From Bacilli bacterium (GTDB lineage Bacteria; Bacillota_I; Bacilli_A; RF39; UBA660): 64,000 nt of DNA. Below are positions 9,554 through 53,298 of the stretch, piece after piece (position 1 is the first letter of the stretch; every line of letters begins with the position of its first letter). The notes beneath the pieces are model-generated. The model saw only the letters and a list, made by a program, of their open reading frames with translations. It made no database searches and had not been told where the DNA came from. The position numbers and the translations under genes are program-made. Location of the stretch: positions 48,385 to 112,384 of the forward strand of contig JAFXTH010000004.1 in the NCBI GenBank assembly GCA_017525035.1, in the 5' to 3' direction.

Positions 9554-9559
9554 AATGTA

Positions 9560-15344: not shown

Positions 15345-15378
15345 GGTCTAAAACAAAGAAAAAAGGGAATTAATCCCT
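15345..15378 (-). terminator. Terminator-like hairpin (GGGAuuaauuCCC) that contains the ComK-like stop codon and is followed by a U-run.
   Basis: Read on the minus strand. The stem is weak (4 bp) but is flanked by A/T runs on both sides, so it may act bidirectionally. Confidence 0.3.
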
Positions 15379-15828
15379 TTTTTTTGCATTTAATCTCTTA
15401 AAAATTATTGATTCTAATTTTGATGATCGATAAATTTGATTTTCTAAAGATAATTTTGATATATCAAATATCATTTCTTTCCCATTTTTAAAGTAAATTT
15501 TAGTCTTATTATCTACTTTTTCAATTGATTTTATGCTGTTTAAATTAATCCAGCAACAATCATCTAATAATGATGACTTAATAGGAAAAAATATTAGTAC
15601 ACTACTTTCTTCTACTAATATTGGTAATTTGTAGCTGCAATCTAGTATTTTTTTAGCTCCTTCTACCCTACCCATGTAACTACTACCATAGTATTTACAA
15701 CTTTCATCCATTATTTTGTAAGCATCATTATCTAGTATTACATCATAATCTTTTTCAATAATTCTAGTTTTCCCCACATCTGTCGATATTACAGCGTAAG
15801 TATCTTCATTAATTTCATAACAATTCAT
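15370..15828 (-). CDS. comK: ComK-family protein (competence transcription factor homolog).
   Basis: The 152-aa product aligns with B. subtilis ComK across its core. CKYYGSSYMGRVEGAK aligns with CRFFGSSYAGRKAG. CCWINLNSIKSIEK aligns with CGWISHVHVKEFKA. YFKNGKEMIFDISKLSLENQIYRSSKL aligns with TFSNGKTMELPISYNSFENQVYRTAWL. Confidence 0.75.
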   Translation of the reverse strand: MNCYEINEDTYAVISTDVGKTRIIEKDYDVILDNDAYKIMDESCKYYGSSYMGRVEGAKKILDCSYKLPILVEESSVLIFFPIKSSLLDDCCWINLNSIKSIEKVDNKTKIYFKNGKEMIFDISKLSLENQIYRSSKLESIIFKRLNAKKRD

Positions 15829-22411: not shown

Positions 22412-23500
22412 ATGAATGATGTAACTTCTTTTTTTAATAGAGAAATAAAAGAAAAAGATGCTATTTCTTTTTTAATTAATGGTAGAAAAAAGAATAATCA
22501 ATTTTATAATTATCTAACAAGAAAAATAATATCTCAATTAGAAGTTAGTTATCATTTATATCCAATTGGTCCTGCTTTGCTTGTTTATAATACTAAAAAT
22601 ATTCTCTCTCCAATATTTGAGGATAAAGATCCTTATGTGCTAAGTAAGATAGATAAACTTGATAAAGATAATAAAGATCATTTAGTATTCTCAAAAGCAT
22701 ATACAGATAAATTATCTATGCGCTGGGAATATAATATTTCTTTAGAAGAATTTAAAGAAAAAATAAGCAAATATCTAACAAAAGAGCAAAATGAGCAGGT
22801 AAAAGGACATTATAAAAATTTAAAGAAATGGATAGAAATAACTATTACAAATAAATTAAATAGCATGCCAAATATAGAAATAGAAAAACAAATATATATA
22901 AAATGTTTTGATAATTATATGAAATCAACTAATGAATTTAAAAAATATATAGAATATTTAAAAAAAGATATAATATCAAATTATAAAGTATATCAAATAA
23001 TATTCACACATGATTTCAAAAGAGCTAGATTATTGGAAATAATACACTATATAAGGGAAAAAATTATAAGTGACATGCTAATAAAATATGATAACAACTA
23101 TAGAAAATATGATCTAACCACATTAACTAATAATAAATTCTTTAAAGCAACAGTAAAACCAAATCAAATAGTTAGTAGTTTAATTGCATTAGATAATGAA
23201 TATGAATCGGCAAAGAAAATAAATAATACAGAGAAGTATATTGAAGCAGTAACTATAATTTTCCAAAAGTTTATAAAAATACATCCATATAAAGATGGAA
23301 ATGGAAGAACATCTAGATTATTACTAGATATAATGCTTTTAAATAAGGATATTTTTCCACCAATTTTATATGATACAAATTATGATAGAGCTAACTTAGA
23401 TACACCAAGCCACGAGTATACATTACATAATAATGAAAAACCAATAATAGAGTTCATTAAAAATAGAATTAAAATTACAAATAAAGAATATATAAAATAA
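22412..23500 (+). CDS. Fic/DOC-family protein (putative AMPylation/adenylyltransferase domain).
   Basis: The Fic motif HPYKDGNGRTSRLL matches the consensus HPFx(D/E)GNGR. Confidence 0.7.
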   Translation: MNDVTSFFNREIKEKDAISFLINGRKKNNQFYNYLTRKIISQLEVSYHLYPIGPALLVYNTKNILSPIFEDKDPYVLSKIDKLDKDNKDHLVFSKAYTDKLSMRWEYNISLEEFKEKISKYLTKEQNEQVKGHYKNLKKWIEITITNKLNSMPNIEIEKQIYIKCFDNYMKSTNEFKKYIEYLKKDIISNYKVYQIIFTHDFKRARLLEIIHYIREKIISDMLIKYDNNYRKYDLTTLTNNKFFKATVKPNQIVSSLIALDNEYESAKKINNTEKYIEAVTIIFQKFIKIHPYKDGNGRTSRLLLDIMLLNKDIFPPILYDTNYDRANLDTPSHEYTLHNNEKPIIEFIKNRIKITNKEYIK

Positions 23501-23594
23501 TCAAATAAATAATTGTGGTACATTGTGTAAAATGGCATAGTTTATTTGATTTTTTTATCTAAAAATAGTATTATTGTGTTTAGCGGTGGTTGAA

Positions 23595-26500
23595 ATGAAA
23601 TTATTAAACTTAGGATTAGATGTCGGTTCTACTACTGTTAAGCTAGTTGTTTTAGACAGTAAAAAGAATATATTATATAAGGAATATAGAAGACATTTTT
23701 CTGATACAAAGAAAACAATAGGAGATTTACTAGGGGAAGTTATTAAAAAGTATTCTAAAGATAAATTTACTATTACTATGACAGGAAGTGGAGCGCTTGC
23801 GCTTGCTAAGTTTTTGGATGTAAATTTTGTTCAAGAAGTAATTGCATGTAAAAATGCAATTTTTGAGTATGCAAAAGGAGTAGACGTTTGTATAGAACTT
23901 GGTGGAGAAGACGCTAAGATTATTTATTTTGATCATACTATAGAACAAAGAATGAATGGTACTTGCGCAGGAGGTACTGGATCTTTCTTGGATCAAATGG
24001 CGGTTTTATTAAATACTACTACAGAAGGACTTAATGAATATGCTAAAAAGGGTGAAACAATATATCCTATTGCATCAAGATGCGGTGTATTTGCTAAAAC
24101 AGATATTCAACCTTTATTAAATGAAGGAGCTAAAAAAGAAGATATAGCATTATCAATAATGCAAGCTGTTGTTAATCAAACGATAAGTGGACTTGCTTGT
24201 GGTAAACCAATCAAAGGTAATGTAATATTCTTAGGTGGACCATTAACATATTTATCAATGCTAAGAGAAAGATTTATAAAAACATTAAATCTTAAAGATG
24301 AAGAAATATATGCCCCAGAAGATGCTAATTTATTTGTGGCAATAGGAAGTGCTCTTGATACAGAAGAAAAGAAAGAATTTACTAATAAGGAATTAAGTAA
24401 ATTAAAAGAGAAATTAAATGAGTTCACAGAAAGTGAATCAGTAGATTTACCTGCATTATTTAAAGATGATAAAGAATATGCAAAATTTAAAAAGAGACAT
24501 TCTAAAGCATCAGTTAAAAGAAGAGATTTAGCAAAATATCATGGAGATATATTCTTAGGAATAGATGCAGGAAGCACAACCTGTAAGGTTGTTGCAATTA
24601 GCTCAAAAGGTGAACTTTTATATGAAAATTATAAGAGTAATAAAGGTACACCAGTTGATACTGTTAAAAATATGTTATTAGATTTTTATTCTAAATGTCC
24701 TAAAAACACAGTTATAAGACAATGCGGTTCTACAGGATATGGAGAGTTATTAATTAAAACAGCATTTAATTTAGACATTAGTGAAATAGAGACTATGGCT
24801 CATTTTGAAGCAGCAAGATATTTCTTAAAAGAAGTTGAAAGCATTATAGATATCGGTGGTCAAGATATGAAATATATCAAGATCAAAGATGGTTCAGTTA
24901 ATTCTATAATGCTTAATGAAGCTTGTTCGTCTGGATGTGGATCATTTATTGAGACATTAGCTAAAAGTCTTGAAATAAGCATAGATGATTTTGTTGATCT
25001 TGCCGTAAAAAGTAAAGCACCAATTGATTTAGGTAGTCGTTGTACGGTGTTTATGAATAGTAAAATTAAACAAACACAAAAAGAAGGTAGACCGCTTGGT
25101 GATATCTTTGCAGGTCTTTCTTATTCAGTAATTAGAAATGCTATTCAAAAAGTAATGAAAATAAGAGATATGGAAACTCTTGGATCTAAAATAGTTGTTC
25201 AAGGTGGTACATTCTTAAATGATGCAGTATTAAAAGCATTTGAAAATATTACAGGCAAAGAAGTAATAAGACCAGATGTAGCAGGATTAATGGGTGCTTA
25301 TGGAGTAGCATTAATCGCACTTGATAGTTATAAAAAGTATAAGGATAAAGATATAAAGAGTTCTATATTAAATGTAGACGAGATAAATAATCTAGAAATT
25401 AAAACATCTGTTGCAAGATGCCAAAGATGTGAAAACCATTGTGCTCTTACTATAAATAGATTTAATAAAAAAGCTTTTATTTCTGGTAATAGATGTGAAA
25501 GAGGTAGTGGTAACAATGGAAGTAATACAACTCTTCCAAATATGTATTCATGGAAATATGATAGACTATTTGGTTATGAACCACTAGATAATGCTCCTCG
25601 TGGAGAAATAGGAATACCAAGAGTACTTAATATGTATGAAAATTATCCATTATGGTTTACTATACTTACTAATTTAGGATTCAAAGTAGTATTATCAGAT
25701 CATTCAAATAGAAGAATTTATGAAAGCGGAATTGATTCAATACCTAGTGAATCAGTATGTTATCCAGCTAAATTAGTACATGGACATATGGTTAATTTAA
25801 TAGAGAAGGGTGTTAAAACAATTTTTTATCCATGTGTAATATTTGAGAAAGAAGAATTTAAAAACACAGATAATCATTATAACTGTCCAATAGTACAAAG
25901 TTATGGAGAATCCATAAAACTAAACTTAGAAGATTTAAAAAGTAAACACATTAAATATATAAATTCATTCTTACCTTTAGAAGAAAAAACATTAATCAAT
26001 TTATTCTTAAAACTTCCTGAATTTAAAGAATATAAATTTAATAAAAAAGAAGTTAAAGAAGCAGTACATAAAGGATTCTTAGAACAAGAAAAGTTTAAGG
26101 AAGATGTTAGAAAAAAGGGAGAGGAATTCTTAAAATACATTAATGATCATGATGAAAAAGCAATAGTACTTGCAGGAAGACCATATCACTTAGATAAGGA
26201 AGTAAATCATGGTATTGATACAATGATAAATTCTTTAGGTCTTGCTGTATTATCAGAAGATTCAATATGTCATTTAAGTAAATTAGAATCAAATTTGCGT
26301 GTAGTAAATCAATGGGAATATCATGCAAGAATATTCCATGCAGCTGATGTAGTATCACAATATGATAACATTGAACTTGTTAATCTAAACTCATTCGGAT
26401 GTGGACTTGACGCTATTATTACGGATCAGGCTGAAGAAATACTAAGATTTAACAATAAGTTATTTACTACAATAAAAATAGATGAAATAAATAATCTTGG

Positions 26501-27809
26501 AGCAGCGAAGATAAGAATTAGATCTTTGATTGCATCAATGAATAAAAGGATTGAAAGTAATAAATATTCTCCATATGAATATGAGAAGAATTATTTTAAG
26601 AAAAGTGATAAAGAACATATATTACTTCTTCCAGATATGACAGCATTCCATATGCCTTTACTTGAGTCAGTATTAAAAAGTTGTAAATATAAAGCAGTAT
26701 ATCTAAGAGAGACGACAGATAAGACTATTGAAACAGGACTTAAATATGTTAATAACGATGCATGTTATCCTGCAATAATAGTAACTGGTCAATTAATTGA
26801 GGCGTTACAAAGTGGTAAATATGATCTAGATAACACAAGTGTTATTATTACTCAAACTGGTGGAGGATGCCGTGCTACTAACTATATTGGATTAATTAGA
26901 AAAGCACTTAAAGATGCTGGTCTTGAAAAAGTTTCTATATTATCATTCAATTTAAGTGGAATGGAAAAAGAACAAGCATTCAAGATAACTCTTCCAATGG
27001 TTAATAAATTATTACAAGCGGTTGCATATGGTGATTTATTAATGAAACTTCTTTACTCAACAAGACCTTATGAAGTAAATAAAGGTGAAAGTAAGAAGTT
27101 ATATGATAAATGGAATGATATTTGTTATAAAGCAGTAACAAAGGGTAGCATTAGAGAATATAGAAAGAATGTTAAAGCGATTGTTAAAGATTTTGATAAC
27201 ATTAAGGTAAAATTAACAGATAAGCCTAAAGTTGGAATTGTTGGAGAAATCTTAATTAAGTATCATACTTTTGGGAATGATAATTTAGTTGATAAACTTG
27301 AAAAAGAAGGATCAGAAGTATGTGCTCCAGAATTAATGGGATTTGTTAAGTATTGTGCATTCGATAGTATCGCACGAGATAAATTGTTAAAGAAAAATTC
27401 ATTCTATTCATATGCTTGTAAAAAATTAATAAGCATTATTGGATTTTATGAAAAGCCAGTAAACAAAGCATTGGATAAGACAAGATTTAGAAAGACAACA
27501 GATATTTATAAATTATCTAAGAATGTTGAAGGTATTATATCTTTAGCAAACCAGACTGGTGAAGGTTGGTTCTTAACTGGTGAAATGATTGAATTTATTA
27601 AAGAAGGTATAAATAATATCGTCTGTGTTCAACCGTTCGCATGCCTTCCAAACCATATAGTGGGTAAGGCAGTTATAAAAAGAATTAGAGAACTTTACCC
27701 AAATAGTAACATAGTTGCAATAGACTATGATCCAGGTGCAAGTCATACTAATCAAGTTAACAGAATTAAGTTAATGTTAACTGTGGCAAAAGAAAAGCAA
27801 AAGAAATAG
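23595..27809 (+). CDS. Giant fusion protein with two BadF/BadG/BcrA/BcrD-type activator ATPase domains fused to a 2-hydroxyacyl-CoA-dehydratase (HgdB/D-component-like) domain. It is annotated in databases as a 'CoA-substrate-specific enzyme activase'.
   Basis: The two ATPase domains begin GLDVGSTTVKLVV and GIDAGSTTCKVVA. A Cys-rich linker follows (CQRCENHC, CERGSG), then about 700 aa of dehydratase-like sequence. The start was chosen at ATG 23595 after GGTGGT. Confidence 0.65.
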   Translation: MKLLNLGLDVGSTTVKLVVLDSKKNILYKEYRRHFSDTKKTIGDLLGEVIKKYSKDKFTITMTGSGALALAKFLDVNFVQEVIACKNAIFEYAKGVDVCIELGGEDAKIIYFDHTIEQRMNGTCAGGTGSFLDQMAVLLNTTTEGLNEYAKKGETIYPIASRCGVFAKTDIQPLLNEGAKKEDIALSIMQAVVNQTISGLACGKPIKGNVIFLGGPLTYLSMLRERFIKTLNLKDEEIYAPEDANLFVAIGSALDTEEKKEFTNKELSKLKEKLNEFTESESVDLPALFKDDKEYAKFKKRHSKASVKRRDLAKYHGDIFLGIDAGSTTCKVVAISSKGELLYENYKSNKGTPVDTVKNMLLDFYSKCPKNTVIRQCGSTGYGELLIKTAFNLDISEIETMAHFEAARYFLKEVESIIDIGGQDMKYIKIKDGSVNSIMLNEACSSGCGSFIETLAKSLEISIDDFVDLAVKSKAPIDLGSRCTVFMNSKIKQTQKEGRPLGDIFAGLSYSVIRNAIQKVMKIRDMETLGSKIVVQGGTFLNDAVLKAFENITGKEVIRPDVAGLMGAYGVALIALDSYKKYKDKDIKSSILNVDEINNLEIKTSVARCQRCENHCALTINRFNKKAFISGNRCERGSGNNGSNTTLPNMYSWKYDRLFGYEPLDNAPRGEIGIPRVLNMYENYPLWFTILTNLGFKVVLSDHSNRRIYESGIDSIPSESVCYPAKLVHGHMVNLIEKGVKTIFYPCVIFEKEEFKNTDNHYNCPIVQSYGESIKLNLEDLKSKHIKYINSFLPLEEKTLINLFLKLPEFKEYKFNKKEVKEAVHKGFLEQEKFKEDVRKKGEEFLKYINDHDEKAIVLAGRPYHLDKEVNHGIDTMINSLGLAVLSEDSICHLSKLESNLRVVNQWEYHARIFHAADVVSQYDNIELVNLNSFGCGLDAIITDQAEEILRFNNKLFTTIKIDEINNLGAAKIRIRSLIASMNKRIESNKYSPYEYEKNYFKKSDKEHILLLPDMTAFHMPLLESVLKSCKYKAVYLRETTDKTIETGLKYVNNDACYPAIIVTGQLIEALQSGKYDLDNTSVIITQTGGGCRATNYIGLIRKALKDAGLEKVSILSFNLSGMEKEQAFKITLPMVNKLLQAVAYGDLLMKLLYSTRPYEVNKGESKKLYDKWNDICYKAVTKGSIREYRKNVKAIVKDFDNIKVKLTDKPKVGIVGEILIKYHTFGNDNLVDKLEKEGSEVCAPELMGFVKYCAFDSIARDKLLKKNSFYSYACKKLISIIGFYEKPVNKALDKTRFRKTTDIYKLSKNVEGIISLANQTGEGWFLTGEMIEFIKEGINNIVCVQPFACLPNHIVGKAVIKRIRELYPNSNIVAIDYDPGASHTNQVNRIKLMLTVAKEKQKK

Positions 27810-30481: not shown

Positions 30482-31807
30482 ATGAAAAATAAGAAAGAAA
30501 AAGCTTTCACGTTAATTGAATTATTGGCAGTTATTATAATCTTGGGAATACTTATGATTATAGCAATTCCAAGTGTTACTAGTTACATTTCAACATCAAG
30601 AAAAAGCGCATATATTGATACTGCTAGACAGGTTATAGCAAGTACAAGAAATTTAGTTAATAGTGGAAAATTAAGTATGTTTGATAGAAGTGCAACATAT
30701 TATATCCCAACAAGTTGTATTAAACTTGAAAATAGTAATACTCCAGTATCTCCTTATGGAGATTTTGAAAGAGCATATATAGTAGTTACTTACGAAGGGT
30801 CAAATTATAACTACTATTGGGTAAGTGTAGATGAAACAGGACAAGGAATTAGTACACTTACTAAAGTCGATGATTTGGATGAAGATTTAATTAAAACAGG
30901 ATTAAAAGGATCAGATATTGTTTTAGAAAATATTTCTGGAAAGAATCGATTAGTAGAATTCACAGCAGATTGTAAGAATACAATCAATCATGTTGATGAT
31001 GCTGGTTCAGATGCTGCAAATACAACAGATAATATTACATGGACTTATAATGATATGAGTATAAGTGTTGATGTTCATTTATCACAGTGTAACATAAGTG
31101 GCGATTATAAAATTTGTTATAATGCAACAATCGATGCTTCTAATGTTGGAGAAAATGCAACAATTAAATATTTTGAAGCTATATTTGATATTCCGCAAGG
31201 TACTGAATTAGTTCATCAAGGGTATGATCCAGATAAGTTAAAAGCAGAAATTGTTGATGGAAAATTAAAAATTATTGGAAACTCTGGACAAAATACATGG
31301 AATTTTTTAACACCAAGTAACGGATCAAGTCACTTATCAGGTGGTTTCCAAATTAAATTCCCTAAAGATGTTGATTTTGTATTACAAAATGGTAAAATTC
31401 AATATGTTGAATTAGTTAGTGGTGTTCAAGAAGGTAATTCATCAGGAGTTCAAGGCAATGCTTCTGATATGAATATTGATCTTGCAAAACTTAATATTAG
31501 ACTTGTAAGAGATAATTACTATAATAGTGGAAATGGTAAATATACTGCACAATACACTGTATATGTTAAAAACATTTCTGATTCTGATATTACTGATTGG
31601 TCATTTGTTCTTGAAGCACCAGATACTATTACTAATATATCTTCATATAACCCATTAATTTATAGTAAGAGTGGAAATGTTTATACATTTACTCCATTTG
31701 AATGGGATAATGAATATAGAACATTGTCACCAAATGAAACAGCACACTATGATAAAAAATTGGTAATAGAGACAACTGATATGAACGCTATTCCAACAAT
31801 TAGATAG
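30482..31807 (+). CDS. Large type IV pilin-like protein with a prepilin-type N-terminal domain.
   Basis: The N-terminus MKNKKEKAFTLIELLAVIIILGILMIIAIPS is a class III signal-peptide/methylation motif, with Ala instead of Gly at -1 and the conserved Glu at +5. It is followed by about 400 aa of Ser/Thr/Asn/Gly-rich, beta-rich sequence. Confidence 0.65.
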   Translation: MKNKKEKAFTLIELLAVIIILGILMIIAIPSVTSYISTSRKSAYIDTARQVIASTRNLVNSGKLSMFDRSATYYIPTSCIKLENSNTPVSPYGDFERAYIVVTYEGSNYNYYWVSVDETGQGISTLTKVDDLDEDLIKTGLKGSDIVLENISGKNRLVEFTADCKNTINHVDDAGSDAANTTDNITWTYNDMSISVDVHLSQCNISGDYKICYNATIDASNVGENATIKYFEAIFDIPQGTELVHQGYDPDKLKAEIVDGKLKIIGNSGQNTWNFLTPSNGSSHLSGGFQIKFPKDVDFVLQNGKIQYVELVSGVQEGNSSGVQGNASDMNIDLAKLNIRLVRDNYYNSGNGKYTAQYTVYVKNISDSDITDWSFVLEAPDTITNISSYNPLIYSKSGNVYTFTPFEWDNEYRTLSPNETAHYDKKLVIETTDMNAIPTIR

Positions 31808-31904: not shown

Positions 31905-33218
31905 ATGAATGACAATAATAGCGAAGTAGTATATTTATATTTGGATGATATTATTCCAAATAGATTTCAACCAAGAGAAGTATTTGATGAACAAGCATTA
32001 AAAGAATTAGCTGTATCAATCAAAGAACATGGAGTTATACAACCAATTATTGTAAGACAGGTTGAAAATAAATATGAAATTATTGCAGGAGAAAGAAGAT
32101 ATAAGGCATCAACAATGGCAGGTCTTACAAAGATACCTGCAATTGTTAAGAATTTAGATGATAAAGAAAGTTCTAAAATAGCTTTAATAGAAAATCTTCA
32201 GAGAAAAGATTTATCACCAATTGAAGAAGCAAGAACATATCAAAAGATTCTTGAAATTGAGGATAATATGACTCAAGAAGAACTTGCTGCTACTATGGGT
32301 AAAACTCAATCTTCTGTATCTAATAAATTAAGATTGTTAGCATTACCTGAAGAAGTTCAAGATGCTTTATTGAAAGATAAAATATCTGAAAGACATGCAA
32401 GAACATTATTAAACTTAGAAGATAGAAACGATCAAATAAAGATGATGGATCGAGTAATAGAAAATAAAATGACAGTAAGAGAGCTTGAAAAAGCAATTAA
32501 AGAATTTAAAGATCCTACAAGTATTGTGGAAGAAAATCAAGCTATAGATGCAGCTCCAGCGATTGTAAATGTTGATGATGCATCACTTAGTGCTAGCGAT
32601 TTAGTAAATGAAGAATCACAATCAACAGAAAGAACATTGGCGGATACATTTATGGATATTAAAAATGGAATAGACACAGAAACAAATACTGAAGCAGTTT
32701 CTGTTGAAGAACAAATAGACGCAATTGATCCAACAGAAGTAAATATAGACAAAATAAGAGAAAGTGCAGTGGACATTGGAGGAGCAAAAGTTGAAGAGGC
32801 TACAGAAGTAAGTCCTGAACCACAAATGGGATTTAAATTTGTTCCATCGTTCAGTTCAGCAGGAACAGTAACAGAACCTCCAACAACACCGGAAGTTGTG
32901 GCAGTAGAACCCGTAACAGAAGCACCTGCGCCAACTGAAGAAGTATCAGATATATCTCCTGCTTTTGAACAACCATCTCAAGACTTAGTTAATAAAGAAC
33001 CAACACTAGATGAAATAAATCAACCAGATACAATTGCAGCAGAGATTGGAAACCAACCTATAGCAATAGCAGCAGGTGGTAAAGATATATCAACAGCTAT
33101 TGAAAAAATAAAAGAAGAAGTTGATAGTTTAAAGAATGATGGCTACAACGTAATGCTTGATGAAATGGATAATAAAGACAATTATTTGATTTCAATTATT
33201 TTTAAGAAAGATGCATAG
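31905..33218 (+). CDS. noc: ParB-family nucleoid occlusion protein (Noc-like) with a long acidic/Pro/Thr-rich C-terminal extension.
   Basis: The N-terminal ParB motifs are present (IIAGERRYKAS, HTH region). It lies between rsmG and soj, the Noc position in Bacillus. Residues from about 230 to 437 are low-complexity (EPVTEAPAPTEEVSD...). Confidence 0.7.
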   Translation: MNDNNSEVVYLYLDDIIPNRFQPREVFDEQALKELAVSIKEHGVIQPIIVRQVENKYEIIAGERRYKASTMAGLTKIPAIVKNLDDKESSKIALIENLQRKDLSPIEEARTYQKILEIEDNMTQEELAATMGKTQSSVSNKLRLLALPEEVQDALLKDKISERHARTLLNLEDRNDQIKMMDRVIENKMTVRELEKAIKEFKDPTSIVEENQAIDAAPAIVNVDDASLSASDLVNEESQSTERTLADTFMDIKNGIDTETNTEAVSVEEQIDAIDPTEVNIDKIRESAVDIGGAKVEEATEVSPEPQMGFKFVPSFSSAGTVTEPPTTPEVVAVEPVTEAPAPTEEVSDISPAFEQPSQDLVNKEPTLDEINQPDTIAAEIGNQPIAIAAGGKDISTAIEKIKEEVDSLKNDGYNVMLDEMDNKDNYLISIIFKKDA

Positions 33219-33306: not shown

Positions 33307-34092
33307 ATGGGAAAAATGATTTCTTTAGTTAATCAAAAAGGTGGAGTTGGTAAAACTACTACTAGCATTAACTTATCTGCGTCTTTAGCTTATTTAGGTA
33401 AAAAAGTATTATTATTAGATTTAGATCCACAAGGAAATACCACTACTGGTATTGGTATGAATAAAGGTGATATAGATAGAACTATCTATGATGTATTAAC
33501 TGGAAAATGCAATATTGAAGATGCTATTATCCACACACAATACAAGAGATTGGATTTAATTCCAGCAACTGTTAACTTAAGTGGATTAGACACTGAATTT
33601 TTCGAAAAATCTAAAGAAGAACCTAACTTTGTTAAAGGAGCACAATTAAAAAATAAAATTAAATCAATTAGAGACAATTACGATTATATTATCGTTGATT
33701 GCCCACCATCACTAAGTATTATTACAATAAATGCTTTGACTGCATCAAACTCAGTTATAATACCAGTTCAATGTGAGTTCTTAGCACTTGAAGGTATTAT
33801 GCAATTATTAAATACAATTATGATGGCACAAAAACAATTAAATCCTAGTCTTGAAATTGAAGGAGTTTTACTAACAATGTTAGATTCAAGAGCAAATTTA
33901 GGATTTGAAGTAGTTGAAGAAATCAGAAAGTATTTCAAAGAAAGAGTTTATAATACAATTATTCCAAGACTTGTTAGACTTGCAGAGTCTCCATCTCATG
34001 GGAAGCCAATAATAGCATATGATCCAAAATGTAGAGCAACTGATGCTTATATAAATTTAGCGAAGGAAGTGATTGAGAGAAATGGACAATAA
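33307..34092 (+). CDS. soj: Chromosome partitioning ATPase ParA/Soj.
   Basis: The 261-aa product has the deviant Walker A NQKGGVGKTTT. Confidence 0.9.
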   Translation: MGKMISLVNQKGGVGKTTTSINLSASLAYLGKKVLLLDLDPQGNTTTGIGMNKGDIDRTIYDVLTGKCNIEDAIIHTQYKRLDLIPATVNLSGLDTEFFEKSKEEPNFVKGAQLKNKIKSIRDNYDYIIVDCPPSLSIITINALTASNSVIIPVQCEFLALEGIMQLLNTIMMAQKQLNPSLEIEGVLLTMLDSRANLGFEVVEEIRKYFKERVYNTIIPRLVRLAESPSHGKPIIAYDPKCRATDAYINLAKEVIERNGQ

Positions 34093-34966
34093 CACTTATA
34101 AAAGAAGAGCTTTAGGAAAAGGATTAGAGGAACTATTTAACAACGAACAAATTAATTTTGATCAAATTGAGGAGAAAATACTAGATTCAAGTACAAGAGA
34201 TGAAATAGTAGAATTGCCAGTTGATGAGTTAAGACCTAACCCATATCAACCTAGAAAAGTATTTGATGAAGATAAGTTAAATGAACTAGCTAATTCAATT
34301 AAAGAACATGGTATTTTTCAACCAATTATTGTTAAGAAAAGTTCAATAAAAGGTTATGAAATAATTGCCGGTGAAAGAAGAGTTAAAGCTTGTAAAATTG
34401 CTGGTATTGAAAAGATACCTGCTATAGTAAGAGATTTCACTGATGAACAAATGATGGAAATTGCATTGCTAGAAAACTTACAAAGAGAAAATTTAAACTC
34501 AATAGAAGAAGCAATGGCTTATAAAAACTTGCTTGATGCAATGAAAGTAACACAAGAAGAACTTGCTAAAAGGTTAGGTAAGAGTAGAAGTCATATTACT
34601 AACATGTTAGGACTTCTAAATCTTCCTGAAGAAGTAAAAGATATGATTGTAGAAGAGAAAATATCTATGTCTCATGCAAGAGTATTAAGTAAGATGGAAA
34701 ATAAAGAAGAAGTTATAGCACTTGCTAATAGAATTGTTAATGAAAGATTAAATGTTAGAGATATAGAAGATGTATCTAAAGATGAATCTATCAAGAAAAC
34801 ACATAAGATTAAAGTAAAACAAAACAATAAATATGAGTATATTCAAAATACAATGTGTGAAAAACTAGGTACAAAAGTTAAGATAACTTCTAATAGAATA
34901 AATATTACATTTACTAATGATAATGATCTAAATAGAATATTAGAAATATTAAATATTGGTGAATAA
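34082..34966 (+). CDS. spo0J: Chromosome partitioning protein ParB/Spo0J.
   Basis: It has ParB box motifs (IIAGERRVKACK, HTH LAKRLGKSRSHITN) and overlaps the soj stop. The start was chosen at MDNNTY; the track starts at 34073. Confidence 0.85.
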   Translation: MDNNTYKRRALGKGLEELFNNEQINFDQIEEKILDSSTRDEIVELPVDELRPNPYQPRKVFDEDKLNELANSIKEHGIFQPIIVKKSSIKGYEIIAGERRVKACKIAGIEKIPAIVRDFTDEQMMEIALLENLQRENLNSIEEAMAYKNLLDAMKVTQEELAKRLGKSRSHITNMLGLLNLPEEVKDMIVEEKISMSHARVLSKMENKEEVIALANRIVNERLNVRDIEDVSKDESIKKTHKIKVKQNNKYEYIQNTMCEKLGTKVKITSNRINITFTNDNDLNRILEILNIGE

Positions 34967-46156: not shown

Positions 46157-46996
46157 ATGGAAGATTCAAAGAAAAAAACATCAAAAGTATGGTTAATAAT
46201 TATTGTAATTATATTGATGATTATAACTTTCTGTCTTGGCTTATTTTTAAGCAATATATTATGTAAAAAGTGTGATGATAAGAAAGATCAAGAGATAGTA
46301 GAAACAAAAAAAGAAGAATTATCTGATAAAGGTATTAAAAATGTAATGGAGCGTTTCGAAGCAATTAAGATATCATCTGATAGATTATACGAAAATGATA
46401 AGTTTGAAATATCCCAAATTAATCTAAACGAAATGCTTGTAACTGCTTTAAGTAGACAAAACATACCTAGTGTATGTGCTAATGAAGGTGATTATGTTGT
46501 GCTACTAAGTGAAATAAATGATGAACTTGAAAGATATATAGGAAAAACAGTTACAACAGATGACATTAAAAAAGTAAAAGAAGTATCTATGGGAAATCCA
46601 TATGATTACCATTATTCTATCAAAGCAACAGATAACATCAGATTTGATGTTAAGAACTTCGTGTGTGGTGGAGAATTTGATGCTGATGACTATGTATACG
46701 GAAACATTATCAAAGGCGAAAGAGTTGGAGATTATGTATATATTTATGAGAAGAAAGCATTCGGAAGTTATGATCAAAAAAGCCTTGAGAAAGATATTTT
46801 TAAAGTAAATTATTATACTGATTATAAAAAGACAGGAAAAATAGTAGAAACATTAGATTCAATGGAATTTAGAGATAAAGAAGGAAATATAAAACCTACT
46901 GCTATACCTAATTGGGATTTGTATAATACTTACAAATATACGTTTAAACTAATAGATGGAGCATATTATTTTCAATCATTTGAACTAGTAAAATAG
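46157..46996 (+). CDS. Hypothetical membrane-anchored protein.
   Basis: The 279-aa product has an N-terminal TM segment. No motif was recognised. Confidence 0.35.
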   Translation: MEDSKKKTSKVWLIIIVIILMIITFCLGLFLSNILCKKCDDKKDQEIVETKKEELSDKGIKNVMERFEAIKISSDRLYENDKFEISQINLNEMLVTALSRQNIPSVCANEGDYVVLLSEINDELERYIGKTVTTDDIKKVKEVSMGNPYDYHYSIKATDNIRFDVKNFVCGGEFDADDYVYGNIIKGERVGDYVYIYEKKAFGSYDQKSLEKDIFKVNYYTDYKKTGKIVETLDSMEFRDKEGNIKPTAIPNWDLYNTYKYTFKLIDGAYYFQSFELVK

Positions 46997-47047: not shown

Positions 47048-48034
47048 ATGTGGAAAATAGGAAACGTAGAAATAAAAAATAAAGTTGTTTTAGCACCAAT
47101 GGCAGGAGTATGTAATTCTGCTTTTCGTCGTATTGTTAAAGAGATGGGATGTGGATTAATATATGCTGAAATGGTTAGTGATAAAGCAATCTTTTTTAAC
47201 AATCAAAAAACAATTGAAATGCTTTATATGACTGATGAAGAACGCCCTATTGCTCAGCAAATATTTGGTAATGATGAAGAATCATTTGTTAATGCAGCAA
47301 AATTTATTTATGAAAATATGCATCCAGATATTATAGATATAAATATGGGGTGTCCAGTTCCTAAAGTTGCAGTAAGGGCACAAGCAGGAAGTGCACTTTT
47401 AAAAAATCCAGAAAAGATAAAAAAAATAGTAACAAGTGTTGTTAATGCTGTTCCTATTCCAGTAACTGTTAAGATAAGAAGTGGATGGGATGCTAATAGT
47501 ATAAACGCAGTAGAAGTTGCTAAGATTTGTGAAGAAGCTGGAGCTAGTGCAATATGTGTTCATGGAAGAACAAGAAGCCAGGGGTATTCTGGTAAAGCAG
47601 ATTGGAATATTATTAAACAAGTTAAAGAAGCAGTTACTATTCCAGTTATCGGAAATGGTGATGTAGTAGATATCTACAGTGCCAAGAAAATGCTTGATGA
47701 AACTGGTTGTGATGCCATTATGATTGGCAGAGGTTGTCTTGGCAATCCATGGATATTTAAAGAAGTAAATGAATATATAGAAAATAACAACATAATAGAT
47801 AAACCAACACCATTAGATAGAGTAAATATGTGCTTAAAGCACTTAACTTATTTAAAAGATATTAAAGTATCTAAAGTAGCCGTTTTAGAAATAAGAAACC
47901 ATGTAGCATGGTATTTAAAAGGAATAAAAGGTTCTAATGAAATAAAAAATAAAATCTTTAAGACTAAAGATTTAGATGAAATATATGATATCTTAAATGA
48001 TTATAAAAAATATGTAGAGGAGGAATATAAATGA
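47048..48034 (+). CDS. dusB: tRNA-dihydrouridine synthase.
   Basis: It has the Dus motif LAPMAGVCNSAFR and a TIM-barrel FMN site. Start ATG 47048 follows GGTGAG. Confidence 0.85.
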   Translation: MWKIGNVEIKNKVVLAPMAGVCNSAFRRIVKEMGCGLIYAEMVSDKAIFFNNQKTIEMLYMTDEERPIAQQIFGNDEESFVNAAKFIYENMHPDIIDINMGCPVPKVAVRAQAGSALLKNPEKIKKIVTSVVNAVPIPVTVKIRSGWDANSINAVEVAKICEEAGASAICVHGRTRSQGYSGKADWNIIKQVKEAVTIPVIGNGDVVDIYSAKKMLDETGCDAIMIGRGCLGNPWIFKEVNEYIENNNIIDKPTPLDRVNMCLKHLTYLKDIKVSKVAVLEIRNHVAWYLKGIKGSNEIKNKIFKTKDLDEIYDILNDYKKYVEEEYK

Positions 48035-48609
48035 AAGCCACATCAGCATCAAGATTTGGAGCGTTTGTTATTGATGCAATAATAGTATTATTCGTATCTG
48101 GACTAATTGTAGGGTTCTTACCAACAACAAAAAAATATGATATTGCAGCAGAAAAGCAAAGCGAGCTAATCGATAAAATTTTATCAACAGAGGTAGAACT
48201 TGATAAGGCATATGATGAAATATATGAAATAAGATATGAACTGGATAAGGAGTCTATCCATATAACACTTGTAACAATTATAATTTATTTAGCATATTAT
48301 GGTACTTTTGCCTACTATAAGAATGGCCAAACTTTAGGTAAGAAATTGATGCGTATTAAGGTCGAGGCAGAGAATGACTCAAATATGACTTTTATACTCA
48401 GAACAGCGTTTATTCATGGTGAATTTACTGCATTAATATCTGTTGTCGGTGTGTTATTCTTGGATAAATCAGCTTATGCAGGATTATATGCGATATGCTC
48501 TTTGGTTAACTTTGCAATTCTTCTTATTTCAGCTATCTTTTGCATGGTAAGAGAAGATGGAAAAGGGTTACATGATTTGTTGTTTAAAACAAGCGTAATT
48601 AAAGAATAA
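48031..48609 (+). CDS. RDD-family membrane protein.
   Basis: Three TM segments and a conserved R-D/E-D region (MVREDGKGLHD). Confidence 0.5.
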   Translation: MKATSASRFGAFVIDAIIVLFVSGLIVGFLPTTKKYDIAAEKQSELIDKILSTEVELDKAYDEIYEIRYELDKESIHITLVTIIIYLAYYGTFAYYKNGQTLGKKLMRIKVEAENDSNMTFILRTAFIHGEFTALISVVGVLFLDKSAYAGLYAICSLVNFAILLISAIFCMVREDGKGLHDLLFKTSVIKE

Positions 48610-48696: not shown

Positions 48697-50115
48697 ATGA
48701 AAAAACATAATTTGTTTAAAGTAGTTATGATAGTTTTACTTGTTTTGGTATTAGTATCTTGGTTCTTACCAGTATATAACATATCAAATGCAGGTACAGA
48801 ATTTGAATCTGGAGATAATATTCGTGTTGGATTCTTTGCTTTAATATCTTTTATTGCTATTGCATTGCAGTATTTTAGCCATATTGCTATGTATATATTG
48901 GCTATTGGAGCATTATATGGTGTTCTATATAAAGTTCCAGTTTATAGAAAACTATTAGATAAGATAGTATCAGGATTCAAAGGATACGAATTATTATTTA
49001 TGGGAATAGTAATGGCTATTGTAACAGTATTAACTTCAATGGTAGGATTATCTTTACCAATACTTGCATTTTTCCCACTTATCATATCTGTAATCTTAAT
49101 GATGGGATACGATAAAGTAACTGCAGCTATGGTAACAGTTGGATCTGTTTCTGCTGGAATGATTGGAACAGTTTTCTCAGCAAATGCAGTTTCAGGAATA
49201 TCTACTTTATTAGAAGTTCCTGCGAATACAGAAGTACTTAGCAAGATTATCTTATTATTAGTATCTTTTGCTATAGTATTCTTAAATGTATTCCTATATT
49301 CAAGAAAACATCGTAAGAAAGAAGTTGTTGTTGAGGCATATTTAGTACCTGAAGAAACAACTACAAAGAAGCCAGTATGGCCATTAGTTGTAATATTAGA
49401 TGTAGTATTAATAGTTCTAGGATTAGCATTCTTCTCTTGGGAACTATTCAATGTTACATTCTTCAAAGATATTACTAATAGTTTAATAAGTGCAGATGGT
49501 GGAAATATAACAAAAGGATTCCTAACTGCATTAAATGCACTTCTTGGTGTAAGTAGTGATGTTGAATTTGGTAAATGGACTTTGATTGAAGGTACTGCAT
49601 TACTAATACTTGCAAGTGGTTTAATTGGATTTGTTTACAGACAAAAATTTGATGAATGGCTAAAGAATATGGCAGAAGGTGCTAAAAAGGCATTAAAACC
49701 TGCTTTACTAGTTATTTTAATATATGCTGTTTTGGTATTTACTACAAACGTACCAATCTACTATACATTAACTAATTGGTTTATGTCATTAAACGGAGAA
49801 TTACATGTATTTATAATGATGATTGTTGCAATTATCTTCATAATCTTAGGTGTAGATGCTTACTATGGATTAAGAGCTGGTCAAGGTTACTTAGCATCAA
49901 TCCTTGCAGTAGATGCTTCTAAAAATGTAATTATTGCATTAATTTGGCAAGCTATGTATGGATTCACAATGTTAATATCACCAACTAGCGTAGTATTAAT
50001 GGTTTCATTAGGATATTTAAATTTATCTTATGGAAAATGGATGAAATCTATTTGGCCATTGATATTAGAATTGCTTGCAGCATCAACAATTCTTCTATAT
50101 ATATTTGCAAGATAA
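48697..50115 (+). CDS. YfcC-family (AbgT/DcuC superfamily) putative transporter.
   Basis: Polytopic membrane protein. PILAFFPLIISVILMMGYDKVTAAMVTVGSV resembles the E. coli YfcC block APLMVRLGYDSITTVLVTYIATQIG. Confidence 0.5.
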   Translation: MKKHNLFKVVMIVLLVLVLVSWFLPVYNISNAGTEFESGDNIRVGFFALISFIAIALQYFSHIAMYILAIGALYGVLYKVPVYRKLLDKIVSGFKGYELLFMGIVMAIVTVLTSMVGLSLPILAFFPLIISVILMMGYDKVTAAMVTVGSVSAGMIGTVFSANAVSGISTLLEVPANTEVLSKIILLLVSFAIVFLNVFLYSRKHRKKEVVVEAYLVPEETTTKKPVWPLVVILDVVLIVLGLAFFSWELFNVTFFKDITNSLISADGGNITKGFLTALNALLGVSSDVEFGKWTLIEGTALLILASGLIGFVYRQKFDEWLKNMAEGAKKALKPALLVILIYAVLVFTTNVPIYYTLTNWFMSLNGELHVFIMMIVAIIFIILGVDAYYGLRAGQGYLASILAVDASKNVIIALIWQAMYGFTMLISPTSVVLMVSLGYLNLSYGKWMKSIWPLILELLAASTILLYIFAR

Positions 50116-50141
50116 AGAAACTTTTAAAAGTTTCTTTTTTT
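50114..50141 (+). terminator. Intrinsic terminator (24-bp perfect palindrome AAAGAAACTTTTAAAAGTTTCTTT plus TTTTG).
   Basis: Read directly from the sequence. Confidence 0.6.
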
Positions 50142-50199
50142 GTATATTTATTGAAATCTTCCTTCATTATGTTCATAAGATTGTATGAAGGGAGATTTT

Positions 50200-52179
50200 A
50201 TGTTTTCTACTTTTACAAATGAATTAAAAAAGCATCTTTATAATGCCAAAAAAGAAATGAATGAATTAAAACATTCATATATCGGGTCTGAGCATTTTAT
50301 TCTAGCTGTGCTAAAGGATAGTAATAATCTGTCTAGAATATTAAATAATTATGGAATAACATATGATAGATTTAGAAAATCAGTAATTGATTTGGTAGGT
50401 ATTGGTAACTCTAATGAATCTTTGTTTATATATACACCTCTTTTTAAGAAGGTTTTGGAAGATGCTATACAAATTGCCAAGAATAATAATTTAGATGTTT
50501 CAATGGAAAATGTTTTTTTATCTATAATGGATGAGGCTGAAGGAGTAGCATACCGTATTTTCTGCGATTATCTAATTGATATTGATTCTTTATATGATGA
50601 AGTTGATGATTTAAATGTTTCTTTTATACCTAAGAATAGGTATATTGATGAAGTAGGAATTGATTTATGTAAGAAAGCTATCAATGATGATGTTGATCCG
50701 GTAATAGGAAGAGAGAAAGAAACAGATAGGCTAATTGAGATAATATGTCGAAGAACCAAAAGGAACCCCTTGCTAATAGGCGAAGCAGGTGTTGGCAAAA
50801 CATCTATTGTTGAAGAATTTGCAAGAAGGTTGGCTTTTAAAGAAGTCCCACAAAAACTACAAAATAAAAGGGTAGTAAGTATATCTATGGCTAGTTTGGT
50901 AGCAGGTACAAAATACCGTGGAGAATTTGAAGAGAAGGTATTAAAGATATTTGATGATTTAGAAAAAAGCGATGATGTAATTGTGTTTATTGACGAAATA
51001 CATACATTAGTCGGAGCAGGTGGTGCTGATGGAGCAATCGATGCGAGTAATATCTTGAAACCAGCTTTAGCAAGAGGAAAAGTAATTGTTATCGGTGCCA
51101 CAACAACCAAAGAATATAACAAGTATATTGAAGATGATAAGGCACTAAGTAGAAGGTTTCAAACAATAATGGTGGAAGAACCAAAAGAAAAAGAATTATT
51201 TAACATATTAAACAAATTAAAAACTAAATACGAAGAATATCATAATGTTTCAATAAGCACGTCAATTCTTAAATATATAATTAAACTGTCAAAAATATAT
51301 TTGCCATATAGAAAAGAGCCAGACAAATCTATAGATATATTAGATGAAGCTTGTTCTAAAATATCTATCGGCAAAGATAAAGAAACAATTAAAAAATCAA
51401 ATTACTTAAAAAGAATTGCTAAAATAAACATAATGAAAAGTAATATGCTGATGTTAAATAAATATGCTGAGTTAATAAAACTAAGAAACGAGGAGAGAAA
51501 ATTATTATCTAATATTAATAAAATAGATTTAAAAATTATGACTAATAATAGACGAAAAAAACTAACTAAGGAATCAATTGATGATGTTATTTCTTTAAGG
51601 AGCAATATTACATTGTATAATAGTTTGAATACCAAAAGTGTATTATCAACACTAAAAAAAGAACTTAAAGCCAGGTTTACTGGTCAAAATGATGCAATTA
51701 ATAAGTTGATTGAGCAAACAAAAGAGTATATAAATATCAACAAACATGACAAATTACTATATTTTACATTTAATGGTAATGATTGTGAGTATATGAATTC
51801 TTTTGCCAAACTATATGGAAAGATTTTACTTGATGATCGTACTACTGTAATTGACTTAGAATCATATAGATCTATTGATACTTTCATTATGAATAACAAA
51901 TCCTTGATTGAAAACTTAAAAGAATATCCACAATCTTTGTTGATATTTAATAATCTAGATAATGCTATTTATGATATTAAAGATTATATAAACAAAATTA
52001 TTAAAGATGGCAAAATAGAATTAGAAAAAGATACTGTTTATATTAATCACTTAATTGTCATAAATATAGAAAAGAAAAAAGAATCTAATTTAGGTTTTAA
52101 TAACTTTAATAAGATAGATAGTAATACTTTAAATGTAATACATTTTAATAAAGAAGAAAAAGAACATATTGTGATATAA
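50200..52179 (+). CDS. ClpC/ClpE-like AAA+ protein with an intact first ATPase domain (D1) and a degenerate, truncated second domain (D2).
   Basis: It has Clp-N-like repeats, D1 Walker A GEAGVGKTS, Walker B VIVFIDEIH and sensor-2 PDKSIDILDEA. In the D2 region the Walker A is lost (YFTFNGNDCEYMNSF where LxGPxGVGKT is expected). The C-terminal domain is missing; the product is 660 aa against about 810 for ClpC. Confidence 0.6.
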   Translation: MFSTFTNELKKHLYNAKKEMNELKHSYIGSEHFILAVLKDSNNLSRILNNYGITYDRFRKSVIDLVGIGNSNESLFIYTPLFKKVLEDAIQIAKNNNLDVSMENVFLSIMDEAEGVAYRIFCDYLIDIDSLYDEVDDLNVSFIPKNRYIDEVGIDLCKKAINDDVDPVIGREKETDRLIEIICRRTKRNPLLIGEAGVGKTSIVEEFARRLAFKEVPQKLQNKRVVSISMASLVAGTKYRGEFEEKVLKIFDDLEKSDDVIVFIDEIHTLVGAGGADGAIDASNILKPALARGKVIVIGATTTKEYNKYIEDDKALSRRFQTIMVEEPKEKELFNILNKLKTKYEEYHNVSISTSILKYIIKLSKIYLPYRKEPDKSIDILDEACSKISIGKDKETIKKSNYLKRIAKINIMKSNMLMLNKYAELIKLRNEERKLLSNINKIDLKIMTNNRRKKLTKESIDDVISLRSNITLYNSLNTKSVLSTLKKELKARFTGQNDAINKLIEQTKEYININKHDKLLYFTFNGNDCEYMNSFAKLYGKILLDDRTTVIDLESYRSIDTFIMNNKSLIENLKEYPQSLLIFNNLDNAIYDIKDYINKIIKDGKIELEKDTVYINHLIVINIEKKKESNLGFNNFNKIDSNTLNVIHFNKEEKEHIVI

Positions 52180-52199: not shown

Positions 52200-53298
52200 A
52201 TGGAACTTTATGAACTACGTAAAAATATATCTGCTGCAAATGATGAAGTAGCAGACTTATGGAGGTTACTTTGACATCGATAATAAGATTGTCAAAATTA
52301 ACAACTTAGAAAAAGAAATGTCTCTTCCTAATTTTTGGGATGATCAAGAAAGAAGCTCAAGTATTATTAATGAACTTAATGATTTGAAATCCATTGTTAA
52401 AGATATAACAACACTAGATAAAGAAGTTAAAGACTTGAACACTGTTGTTGAAGATGAACTAGATGATGAAACCAGTTTGTTAATTGAAGAAGAATACAAT
52501 GATACTAATGAGAGATTAGAAAAACTTAAATTATTACTTTTATTAAGTGATGATTATGATAAAAATGATTGTATATTTGAAATACATTCTGGTGCAGGTG
52601 GAACTGAAGCTTGTGACTGGGCTAACATGATTTATCGAATGTATACAAGATGGTGTGATAAAAAAGGTTACAAGTATACGCTAATTGATTACCAAGAAGG
52701 TGATGAAGTTGGTATTAAAAGTGTATCAATAGAAGTAAAAGGTATGTATGCTTATGGATATTTAAAATGTGAGAAAGGTATTCATAGACTTGTAAGATTA
52801 TCACCTTTTGATGCTAATCATAAAAGACATACATCTTTCGCATCTGTTTTAGTAACACCAATTATTGAAGACTCAAATGATATTGTAATTAATGATAAAG
52901 ATTTAAAAATAGATGTTTATAGATCAAGTGGTAATGGTGGGCAAGGGGTAAATACTACTGATTCAGCAGTTAGAATTACCCATTTACCAACAAAGATTGT
53001 AGTAACATGCCAAAATGAAAGAAGCCAATTACAAAACAAAGAACAAGCAATGAAAATATTAAGAAATAAACTTAAGGTTCTTGAAGTAGAAAAGAAGAAT
53101 ATGGAAATGGAAGAAATAAAAGGAGAACAAATGAATATTGAGTTTGGCTCTCAAATTAGAAGTTACGTAATGCATCCATATTCAATGGTAAAAGACCATA
53201 GAACTAAATGTGAAACAAGTAATGTTTTGGGTGTTCTTGATGGCGATATAGATATGTTTATTGAATCAAAACTTAAAGATAATAACCAAAAAGAGTAG
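52200..53298 (+). CDS. prfB: Peptide chain release factor 2, with a programmed +1 ribosomal frameshift at CTT TGA C (52269-52275).
   Basis: Frame 0 reads MELYELRKNISAANDEVADLWRLL then UGA. An internal SD, GGAGG, lies 3 nt before CUU UGA C. The +1 frame continues as DIDNKIVKINNLEKEMSLPNFWDD..., contains the SPF motif (RLSPFD) and GGQ (SSGNGGQGVNTTDSAVR), and reaches the stop at 53298. Confidence 0.9.

Follow-up and report, generated by a model that had tools for sequence, protein, structure and literature searches.

A clpC orthologue with a degenerate second AAA+ domain and a retained ClpP-loop tripeptide in a lineage of Bacilli

The double-ring unfoldases of the Hsp100/Clp family are central to bacterial proteostasis and are targets for antibiotics. 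In ClpA of Escherichia coli the second AAA+ ring (D2) is the principal motor, responsible for 80-90% of ATP hydrolysis, and it is also regarded as the ring that communicates with ClpP; an enzyme in which this ring is inactive fails many substrates (PMC7568338). Here we describe a ClpC-like protein in which the second module is degenerate. Its gene lies in a stretch of 64,000 nucleotides (nt) from a Bacilli bacterium (GenBank assembly GCA_017525035.1, contig JAFXTH010000004.1, positions 48,385 to 112,384), called the window below, within which all coordinates are given. Judged from its sequence, the gene is the clpC orthologue of its lineage and its product is a derived ClpC variant, not a canonical class-I Clp ATPase. 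The N-domain, the first AAA+ module (D1), the M-domain, the ClpP loop and the orthology are those of ClpC while a functional D2 and its lid are missing, and the protein is therefore filed as a ClpC-derived variant.

50200..52179, + strand: coding sequence of the D2-dead ClpC orthologue, 659 amino acids (aa), stop codon 52177-52179 included

When the protein was compared with the sequences of the PDB using phmmer, the ClpCs of Staphylococcus aureus and Bacillus subtilis headed the matches (E = 1e-101, alignment from aa 6 to 626). With these proteins, which act in the MecA-ClpC-ClpP system, it has in common the N-domain, a D1 with a KYR pore loop, a short UVR-like M-domain and a (V/I/L)GF loop. 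It differs from them in a D2 that is without Walker A and B, pore loop, sensor-1, Arg finger and lid, and in its length of 659 aa as against 810-818 aa. An earlier note on this DNA, made from the letters alone, had the protein ending about 150 aa early, and this is borne out by the comparison with B. subtilis and S. aureus ClpC (810 and 818 aa); the nearest intact orthologues, of 756 aa, are longer by 97 aa. The locus is also unlike theirs in that no ctsR, mcsA or mcsB genes are present upstream of the clpC gene, and a search for the CtsR operator GGTCAAANANGGTCAAA with up to three mismatches gave one intragenic match, below chance expectation, so that there is no sign of CtsR control. The place of the gene downstream of ftsH and dus recalls the B. 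subtilis order ftsH...dusB...clpC.

Laboratory variants with an inactive D2 resemble the window protein in that D1 is active, the D2 ring is catalytically dead and ClpP can use the IGF loop, and the natural Asn at the Walker-B Glu position is reminiscent of the E>Q trap. Those variants however bind ATP in D2, keep their pore loops and lid, and fail many substrates (PMC7568338). In the natural protein, by contrast, D2 is dead for nucleotide binding too, and the protein has been maintained by selection. ClpX would be similar in having one active ATPase ring per hexamer and docking loops of the IGF type, but in ClpX a motor of the HCLR clade sits directly on ClpP, whereas here a D1 of the classic clade would be set apart from ClpP by the dead ring; at its N-terminus the window protein also carries Clp_N in place of a zinc-binding domain. 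Identity with ClpX was rejected. In the D2 of NSF and the D1 of Pex1/Pex6 the non-hydrolysing ring has a structural or assembly role while the other ring does the work, and such dead rings generally bind nucleotide. The division of labour between rings is alike, but these are other families and none of them is known to dock a protease. ClpM, encoded by the Plasmodium apicoplast, likewise belongs to the ClpC family, comes from a reduced genome and has a single AAA+ module that is degenerate (bioRxiv 10.64898/2026.05.20.726455). It is the mirror image of the present case: in ClpM D1 is degenerate and there is no ClpP motif, while here the degeneration has struck D2 and the motif for ClpP has survived. 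Our literature search, of incomplete coverage, found no natural D2-dead ClpC that keeps the ClpP loop.

The N-terminal part of the protein is that of a ClpC, with the following features.

50200..50649, + strand: Clp_N N-domain of two helical repeats, aa 1-150 (Pfam, ClpC structures, AlphaFold2 helices)
50650..51384, + strand: D1 AAA+ module, aa 151-395 (Pfam AAA and AAA_lid_9), all motifs intact
50779-50802, + strand: D1 Walker A GEAGVGKT, aa 194-201, intact
50911-50919, + strand: D1 pore loop KYR, aa 238-240, intact
50986-51003, + strand: D1 Walker B FIDEIH, aa 263-268, intact
51148-51162, + strand: D1 Arg fingers SRRFQ, aa 317-321, intact
51385..51609, + strand: short M-domain of ClpC type (coiled-coil linker), aa 396-470, aligning to S. 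aureus ClpC residues ~412-470
51463-51495, + strand: UVR-like motif YAELIKLRNEE in the M-domain

The earlier note had described the N-domain repeats and D1 as intact, the latter from the motifs GEAGVGKTS, DEIH and PDKSIDILDEA, and both descriptions hold. In the N-domain the first repeat is matched by Pfam Clp_N over aa 21-72 (52.5 bits, cutoff 20.7, E = 6e-14), and the second, although diverged and below the Pfam threshold, can be aligned with N-domain structures of ClpC and has a helical prediction; over its whole length the domain aligns to such structures with E = 1e-14 to 1e-17. D1 passes the thresholds of both Pfam AAA (aa 196-327, 60.5 bits) and AAA_lid_9 (aa 335-434, 75 bits). It has the PDKSIDILDEA segment at aa 374-384, and its motifs are invariant across 33 aligned sequences. 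The AlphaFold2 model places the helices of the M-domain at 394-418 and 422-448.

The D2 region presents a different picture, and the domain scan that the earlier note had proposed returned only a subthreshold match to Pfam AAA_2 (19 bits against a cutoff of 27) beside the passing Clp_N and AAA, and no hit to ClpB_D2-small (PF10431) anywhere in the protein.

51610..52176, + strand: D2 remnant, aa 471-659, an AAA+ alpha/beta core of five strands that has neither nucleotide-binding motifs nor a lid
51775..51798, + strand: former D2 Walker A, GNDCEYMN (from G526) where GPTGVGKT is expected
51937..51960, + strand: former D2 Walker B, LLIFNNLD where hhhhDE (LLDE) is expected

Re-alignment upheld the manual pairing from which the earlier note had concluded that the P-loop is lost, and revealed losses beyond those it gave: the pore loop GSPPGYVGY is deleted, and sensor-1 (TSN), the Arg finger (NRI), sensor-2 (GAR) and the whole lid subdomain are all gone. 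Its description of the C-terminus as low-complexity sequence rich in K, N and I was right as to composition, as these residues make up 48% of the last 60 aa, but this segment can still be aligned with D2 from beta4 through the IGF loop to beta5, and both strands are modelled. The protein ends 10 residues past beta5, just beyond the large AAA+ subdomain, and does so likewise in several lineages. The full AlphaFold2 model, built on the 33-sequence alignment, has a mean predicted local distance difference test score (pLDDT) of 82.8, and a model of D2 only has a pLDDT of 80.8 and a predicted template modelling score of 0.79. These models predict for the D2 remnant an AAA+ core with all of its five strands (520-526, 548-552, 580-584, 619-625 and 646-648), interleaved helices and a beta-hairpin at 605-614. 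D2 is thus best described, as far as sequence and prediction go, as a nucleotide-free pseudo-AAA+ domain in which the core fold is kept.

Structural comparison with Foldseek gave the ClpC chains of ClpC-ClpP complexes as top matches of the full model, and ClpB NBD2, ClpC D2 and SMAX1 as matches of the D2 remnant (template modelling (TM) scores 0.66-0.74, root-mean-square deviation 2.6-3.0 Å over ~155 residues). The top hit of the remnant was the SMAX1 chain of 9klv, presumably its D2 (E = 1.2e-8, TM 0.68). SMAX1 is catalytically degenerate, and SMAX1 and D53 are Hsp100-like repressors of strigolactone signalling in plants. The likeness is a functional analogy only, as it is for the NSF and Pex1/Pex6 rings: SMAX1 and D53 are themselves substrates in eukaryotic signalling, have no known ClpP partner, give no evidence of an active D1 motor and are only 14-16% identical to the D2 remnant. 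A HMMER scan of 1.84 billion representative proteins with the D2 fragment gave just 8 hits at E <= 0.001, so D2 must be far diverged.

Within this remnant one element of ClpC function is retained.

52090..52098, + strand: ClpP-docking tripeptide L631-G632-F633, aligning with the (I/V)GF of intact ClpC orthologues

The earlier note had asked about an (I/L)G(F/L) loop. The protein has one, and so do all 13 of the D2-dead relatives, where G-F is invariant and preceded by L, I or V, while the flanking loop columns are only 23-62% conserved. Among the 189 D2 columns of these 13 sequences just nine are invariant (L489, I500, N585, I597, I600, I621, G632, F633 and F649). The tripeptide sits in a loop, aa 629-642, that is predicted to be disordered (pLDDT < 50), and this low score fits what is expected of a flexible docking loop. 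Hsp100s of the ClpB type, which do not bind ClpP, are not known to carry this loop, and we know of no structural reason to keep it. Retention of the tripeptide, together with its lack in these non-docking proteins, therefore points to a ClpP partnership that has survived.

We consider the window protein to be a ClpC powered by D1 in which D2 serves as a nucleotide-free docking scaffold for ClpP, and would put the probability of this reading at about 60%. D2 would first have lost catalysis, when the Walker-B Glu was replaced by Asn; loss of P-loop, pore loop, sensor-1 and Arg finger would have followed, and the lid would have gone last, with the five-stranded core and the (L/I/V)GF loop retained under weakened purifying selection. 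Hexamers like those of ClpC would still form, with D1 as the sole motor whose KYR pore loops grip and push the substrate, and the dead D2 ring would be a passive conduit as well as a platform from which six LGF loops reach the hydrophobic pockets on ClpP. The resulting complex could be a low-power, D1-driven ClpCP protease, probably regulated by adaptors through the N- and M-domains, and would suit clients that are unstructured, weakly folded or delivered by adaptors in a small-genome, host-associated bacterium.

Several observations weigh against this reading. As D2 is the main motor of ClpA, and a ring with a dead D2 fails many substrates, an enzyme with D1 only should be weak. There are no nucleotide-binding motifs left in D2, which puts in question the assembly of the ring without nucleotide there. 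The gene evolves fast, with 78% aa identity between the window and a related locus (L013) as against 94-99% for most of its neighbours, and a dN (nonsynonymous substitutions per site) of 0.125 as against 0.01-0.03 for neighbours at that 94-99% identity, which would fit a reduced importance. In a second group of D2-dead proteins, described below, some members have an altered or lost tripeptide (LGL, LQF). Furthermore, clpP was not found by tblastn, using approximate E. coli and B. subtilis ClpP queries, in the 64-kb window or in 19 loci, nor was it present in the 10 kb past the right end of the window, which is a search of ~100 kb only and uninformative on the whole genome. The last of these regions was chosen because of the uvrBA...whiA-clpP synteny of Bacilli, and it has the order uvrA-lgt-nusG-rplKAJL.

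The lack of clpP in all sequence examined, and the second-group proteins with LGL or no motif, could also be explained if the protein were a chaperone or regulator independent of ClpP and driven by D1 only, such as a holdase, a remodeller or an adaptor-like factor, in which D2 is an oligomerisation scaffold and LGF a relic or a site for some other partner. Roles of ClpC without ClpP have been reported (PMC10128030). The conservation of (L/I/V)GF in 13 of 13 D2-dead relatives inside a hypervariable loop of predicted disorder speaks against this explanation, as does the general observation that ClpB types, which do not bind ClpP, are without the loop, and we regard it as rather unlikely. The suggestion in the earlier note of a pseudo-ATPase adaptor or regulator is for this reason only partly sustained: D2 is indeed a pseudo-ATPase without Walker A, but an adaptor role independent of ClpP is disfavoured by the retained loop.

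Selection on the protein was examined from the ratio of nonsynonymous to synonymous substitution (omega), calculated by the method of Nei and Gojobori (NG86), which is approximate in AT-rich genomes; synonymous divergence (dS) is near saturation for the L003 pair.

Window and L013 (78% aa identity, dS ~0.9): omega D1 0.055, N-domain 0.13, M-domain 0.12, D2 0.32 (bootstrap 0.19-0.47); equality of the proportions of nonsynonymous (pN) and synonymous (pS) differences in D2 rejected, Fisher p = 8e-8
Window and L003 (59% aa identity): omega D1 0.08, N-domain 0.15, M-domain 0.35, D2 0.43 (bootstrap 0.24-0.73); equality of pN and pS in D2 rejected, p = 3e-5

In every domain pN is well below pS. The expectation of relaxed constraint in the C-terminal half, raised in the earlier note, is realised, with omega at 0.32-0.43 in D2 compared with 0.055-0.08 in D1. 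For a pair of intact orthologues (L001 and L015) omega of the large subdomain of D2 is 0.14 and the ratio of dN in D2 to dN in D1 is 1.4, as against 3.4-4.1 in the short clade; the relaxation of D2 is therefore about 3-fold, yet D2 is not neutral. Both the reading frame and a length of 651-659 aa are kept across at least four lineages at dS of ~0.9-1.6, with no frameshift or stop in the lineages examined. Given this, and a D2 omega significantly below 1, the plain pseudogene that the earlier note had allowed for can be set aside.

A subtler form of loss would be slow decay, the gene eroding piecewise after the death of D2 and its residual constraint reflecting the avoidance of toxic misfolding. 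The raised D2 to D1 ratio of dN is in keeping with such a process, as are the stepwise series of decay states described below, a rate of amino acid change 4-10 times that of most neighbours, and the fact that 12 of the 17 amino acid polymorphisms within the species fall in the M-domain and D2. Decay nevertheless accounts poorly for a D1 omega of 0.055-0.08, as low as that of housekeeping neighbours, for a steady length free of frameshifts and stops over these dS values, for an end that falls just past beta5 in several lineages and for an LGF motif kept in all 13 D2-dead relatives, and we judge it improbable. In the same block of genes, an RDD gene (48031-48609, + strand) is also fast, at 70%/46% aa identity where most other flanking genes have 94-99%/87-94%, and a fast rate is therefore not peculiar to clpC there.

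A gene order of tilS-ftsH-dus-RDD-DcuC-[clp]-prfB-(YitT)-ftsE-ftsX-M23 is common to all forms examined, which comprise short genes (the window and L007, L013, L003), intermediate ones (L016, 721 aa; L022, 673 aa) and intact ones of 756 aa (L001, L015). As it occupies the same slot as the intact 756-aa ClpC, the window gene is a positional orthologue of clpC, and in a neighbour-joining tree of N-domain and D1 the D2-dead forms are sister to the intact orthologues. The designation as a paralog in the earlier note is accordingly withdrawn. Its placing of the gene in the prfB/ftsEX neighbourhood was correct, both lying directly downstream; its remark that secA is usually found there has no bearing, since in this clade it is clpC and not secA that precedes prfB. 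There could still be a second Hsp100 gene in the rest of the genome, which lay outside the search, and the window protein would then be an extra, specialised paralog beside a bona fide clpC with two ATPases, modulating it through, for example, mixed hexamers or adaptor titration. With the gene in the ancestral clpC slot, between flanks identical to those of the intact gene in sister species, and with a tree that does not show an old separate paralog family, this seems to us very improbable.

Other assignments were considered and rejected. The N-terminus is a Clp_N domain and not a zinc ribbon, and a ClpE structure matches only from aa 154, so the protein is not ClpE; nor is it ClpB or Hsp104, as the M-domain is short and ClpC-like and an LGF loop is combined with a dead D2. 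The NCBIfam equivalogs scored below their cutoffs (ClpB 349 against 1232 bits, ClpA 343 against 993), and the ClpA, ClpB and ClpV models match the N-terminal two thirds only. An assembly artefact or frameshifted pseudogene was excluded because the identical DNA occurs in at least six independent assemblies and the short forms are conserved in diverged species. In a search of 5.8 billion proteins the relatives fell into three sets: an identical protein, P0001 (NCBI MBR4671776.1, 'MAG: Bacilli bacterium', from a metagenome-assembled genome (MAG)), with near-identical variants; short proteins at 78%, 68% and 59% identity (658, 651 and 653-658 aa); and a large set of 753-762 aa at 45-49% identity with an intact D2. 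Scanning 185k species-representative genomes, a collection without the organism and its clade, with the protein gave just two unrelated ClpC/ClpB-like loci (L005, L006). Current labels for such proteins, 'ATP-dependent Clp protease ATP-binding subunit' or 'AAA family ATPase', give no sign that the D2 half is dead.

Motifs extracted from 120 homologues can be arranged as a series of decay states.

756 aa: D2 intact
743 aa (P0105/P0113): Walker-B Glu>Asn ('LIDN'); P-loop and lid kept; sensor-1 and sensor-2 changed, pore loop degenerate
721 aa (P0070) and 727 aa (P0025/P0028): Walker B dead, P-loop and lid kept; P0025/P0028 also without the pore loop
673 aa (P0036) and 689 aa (P0120): P-loop also dead, pore loop kept, lid lost; complete open reading frames (ORFs)
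651-659 aa, the clade that includes the window: everything lost

No state is without the D1 motifs or the (I/L/V)GF loop, and the D2 motifs are lost in varying order. With the exception of P0105/P0113, the D2-dead forms group together in the tree of N-domain and D1 as a single clade, with the intact forms as its sister; this and the other trees of these domains are without bootstrap support and their topology is tentative. Asn585 (nt 51952-51954), at the position of the former catalytic Glu, is invariant in all 13 D2-dead relatives, and the Glu>Asn change may be a recurrent first step or else a mark of shared ancestry. The small subdomain of D2, the lid, is poorly conserved even between the intact L001 and L015 (aa 669-756; 36% identity, omega 0.57 with a bootstrap range of 0.26-1.03), and the intact 756-aa orthologues are already ~55-60 aa shorter than ClpC of Bacillus or Staphylococcus. 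Constraint on the C-terminus thus seems to have begun to ease before the death of D2.

The eight hits of the D2 fragment included P0124 (666 aa), and a search with this protein led to a second D2-dead group (P0124-P0161) of ~36 further clusters of ClpC-like proteins of 580-716 aa, a group larger than the first, two members of which come from MAGs named Erysipelotrichales or Erysipelotrichaceae. D1 motifs are intact and D2 is dead in all of them, and some, such as P0124, are also without the M-domain. By manual tally from the motif table, the tripeptide of 37 such proteins is a hydrophobic residue followed by G-F/Y in 26 and x-G-L in 7, with the motif lost in 4, and the Walker-B Glu position is Asn in ~26 of the 37. 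At the loci inspected (L017, 4526-6526; L018, 10001-11974; L019, 10001-11767) the genes adjoin ispD, and some groESL, with secA-prfB nearby. The ispD neighbourhood recalls the clpC...ispD region of Bacillus. Since the second group stands apart from the clade of the window in the N-domain and D1 tree, with intact forms closer to the latter, at least two independent losses of D2 are suggested, although with an unbootstrapped tree a single origin is also possible. It is conceivable that these proteins represent a recurrent natural conversion of ClpC, in at least two lineages of Bacilli, to a protease activator with one engine, in which selection keeps D1 as the sole motor and a nucleotide-free, lid-less D2 purely as a ClpP-docking adaptor and the Glu>Asn change is recurrent and possibly early; we put this forward tentatively, at somewhat less than even odds.

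If D1 does work in this way with ClpP, ATP hydrolysis by D2 would be dispensable for a functioning ClpCP in vivo, and a minimal D2 scaffold of beta-core and IGF loop would be sufficient for coupling to ClpP. The decay states of sister species amount to a natural dissection of the scaffold and IGF loop from ATP hydrolysis, pore loops and lid, and the short form offers a compact construct with which to test if ClpP can be fed by D1 alone.

The remaining features of the locus concern the start, the transcription and the surroundings of the gene.

50114..50141, + strand: terminator-like, AT-rich palindrome AAAGAAACTTTT/AAAAGTTTCTTT with a run of T behind it, immediately past the dcuC-like gene (sequence reading only)
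50188..50194, + strand: ribosome-binding site AAGGGAG, 5 nt upstream of ATG 50200 (read from the sequence)
52200..53298, + strand: prfB with programmed +1 frameshift, ORF0 from ATG 52200 to CTT TGA C at 52269-52275, then the +1 frame to 53298

The longest frame runs from 50185 to 52179. The start was assigned to ATG 50200 because the ribosome-binding site precedes it, database orthologues begin with MFSTF and the upstream in-frame ATG at 50185 abuts that site. The palindrome and T run after the dcuC-like gene imply that the clpC-like gene is on a transcript of its own, and it is probably transcribed separately from its upstream neighbour; the palindrome was not flagged by the consensus terminator scan, which needs at least three G-C pairs. 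In the AT-rich DNA of the window the scans for sigma-70 and terminator consensus sequences gave background levels, and an Rfam scan had no match near the clpC gene. At the gathering threshold the sole Rfam match in the 64 kb was a small bacterial signal recognition particle RNA (9470-9559, - strand), and no rRNA genes were detected in the window. In prfB an SD-like GGAGG (52261-52265) precedes the frameshift site CTTTGAC, and the programmed frameshift at this site indicates that this low-GC organism reads UGA as stop (genetic code 11).

The window has ~28% G+C and spans the replication origin, with GC skew flipping near 18-19 kb and dnaA, dnaN, recF and gyrBA on the minus strand. Between recF and dnaN at the origin there is a homologue of comK (15370-15828, - strand; Pfam ComK, E = 3e-38), and a pilin-like ORF with an N-terminal methylation motif is found at 30482-31807. 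ComK is the textbook substrate delivered by MecA to ClpC-ClpP in B. subtilis. The presence of these two genes raises the possibility that a regulatory axis of competence and ClpC may matter for the D2-dead protein. Near the origin, three genes on the + strand (31905-33218, 33307-34092 and 34073-34966) encode a ParA/Soj ATPase flanked by two ParB-like proteins of 437 and 297 aa, the first of which is unusually long and possibly Noc-like. The set of origin-proximal genes is otherwise standard, except that between mnmE and mnmG there is an insertion (22412-27809, + strand) of a gene for a Fic-domain protein (22412-23500) and one for a protein of 1411 aa, a CoA-enzyme activase in which BcrAD_BadFG ATPase and DUF2229 are fused. 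Finally, an ORF of 279 aa without a Pfam hit lies between ftsH and dus (46157-46996, + strand); it is absent at that position in L013, and L003 has an unannotated 279-aa gene at a different place (2064-2903).

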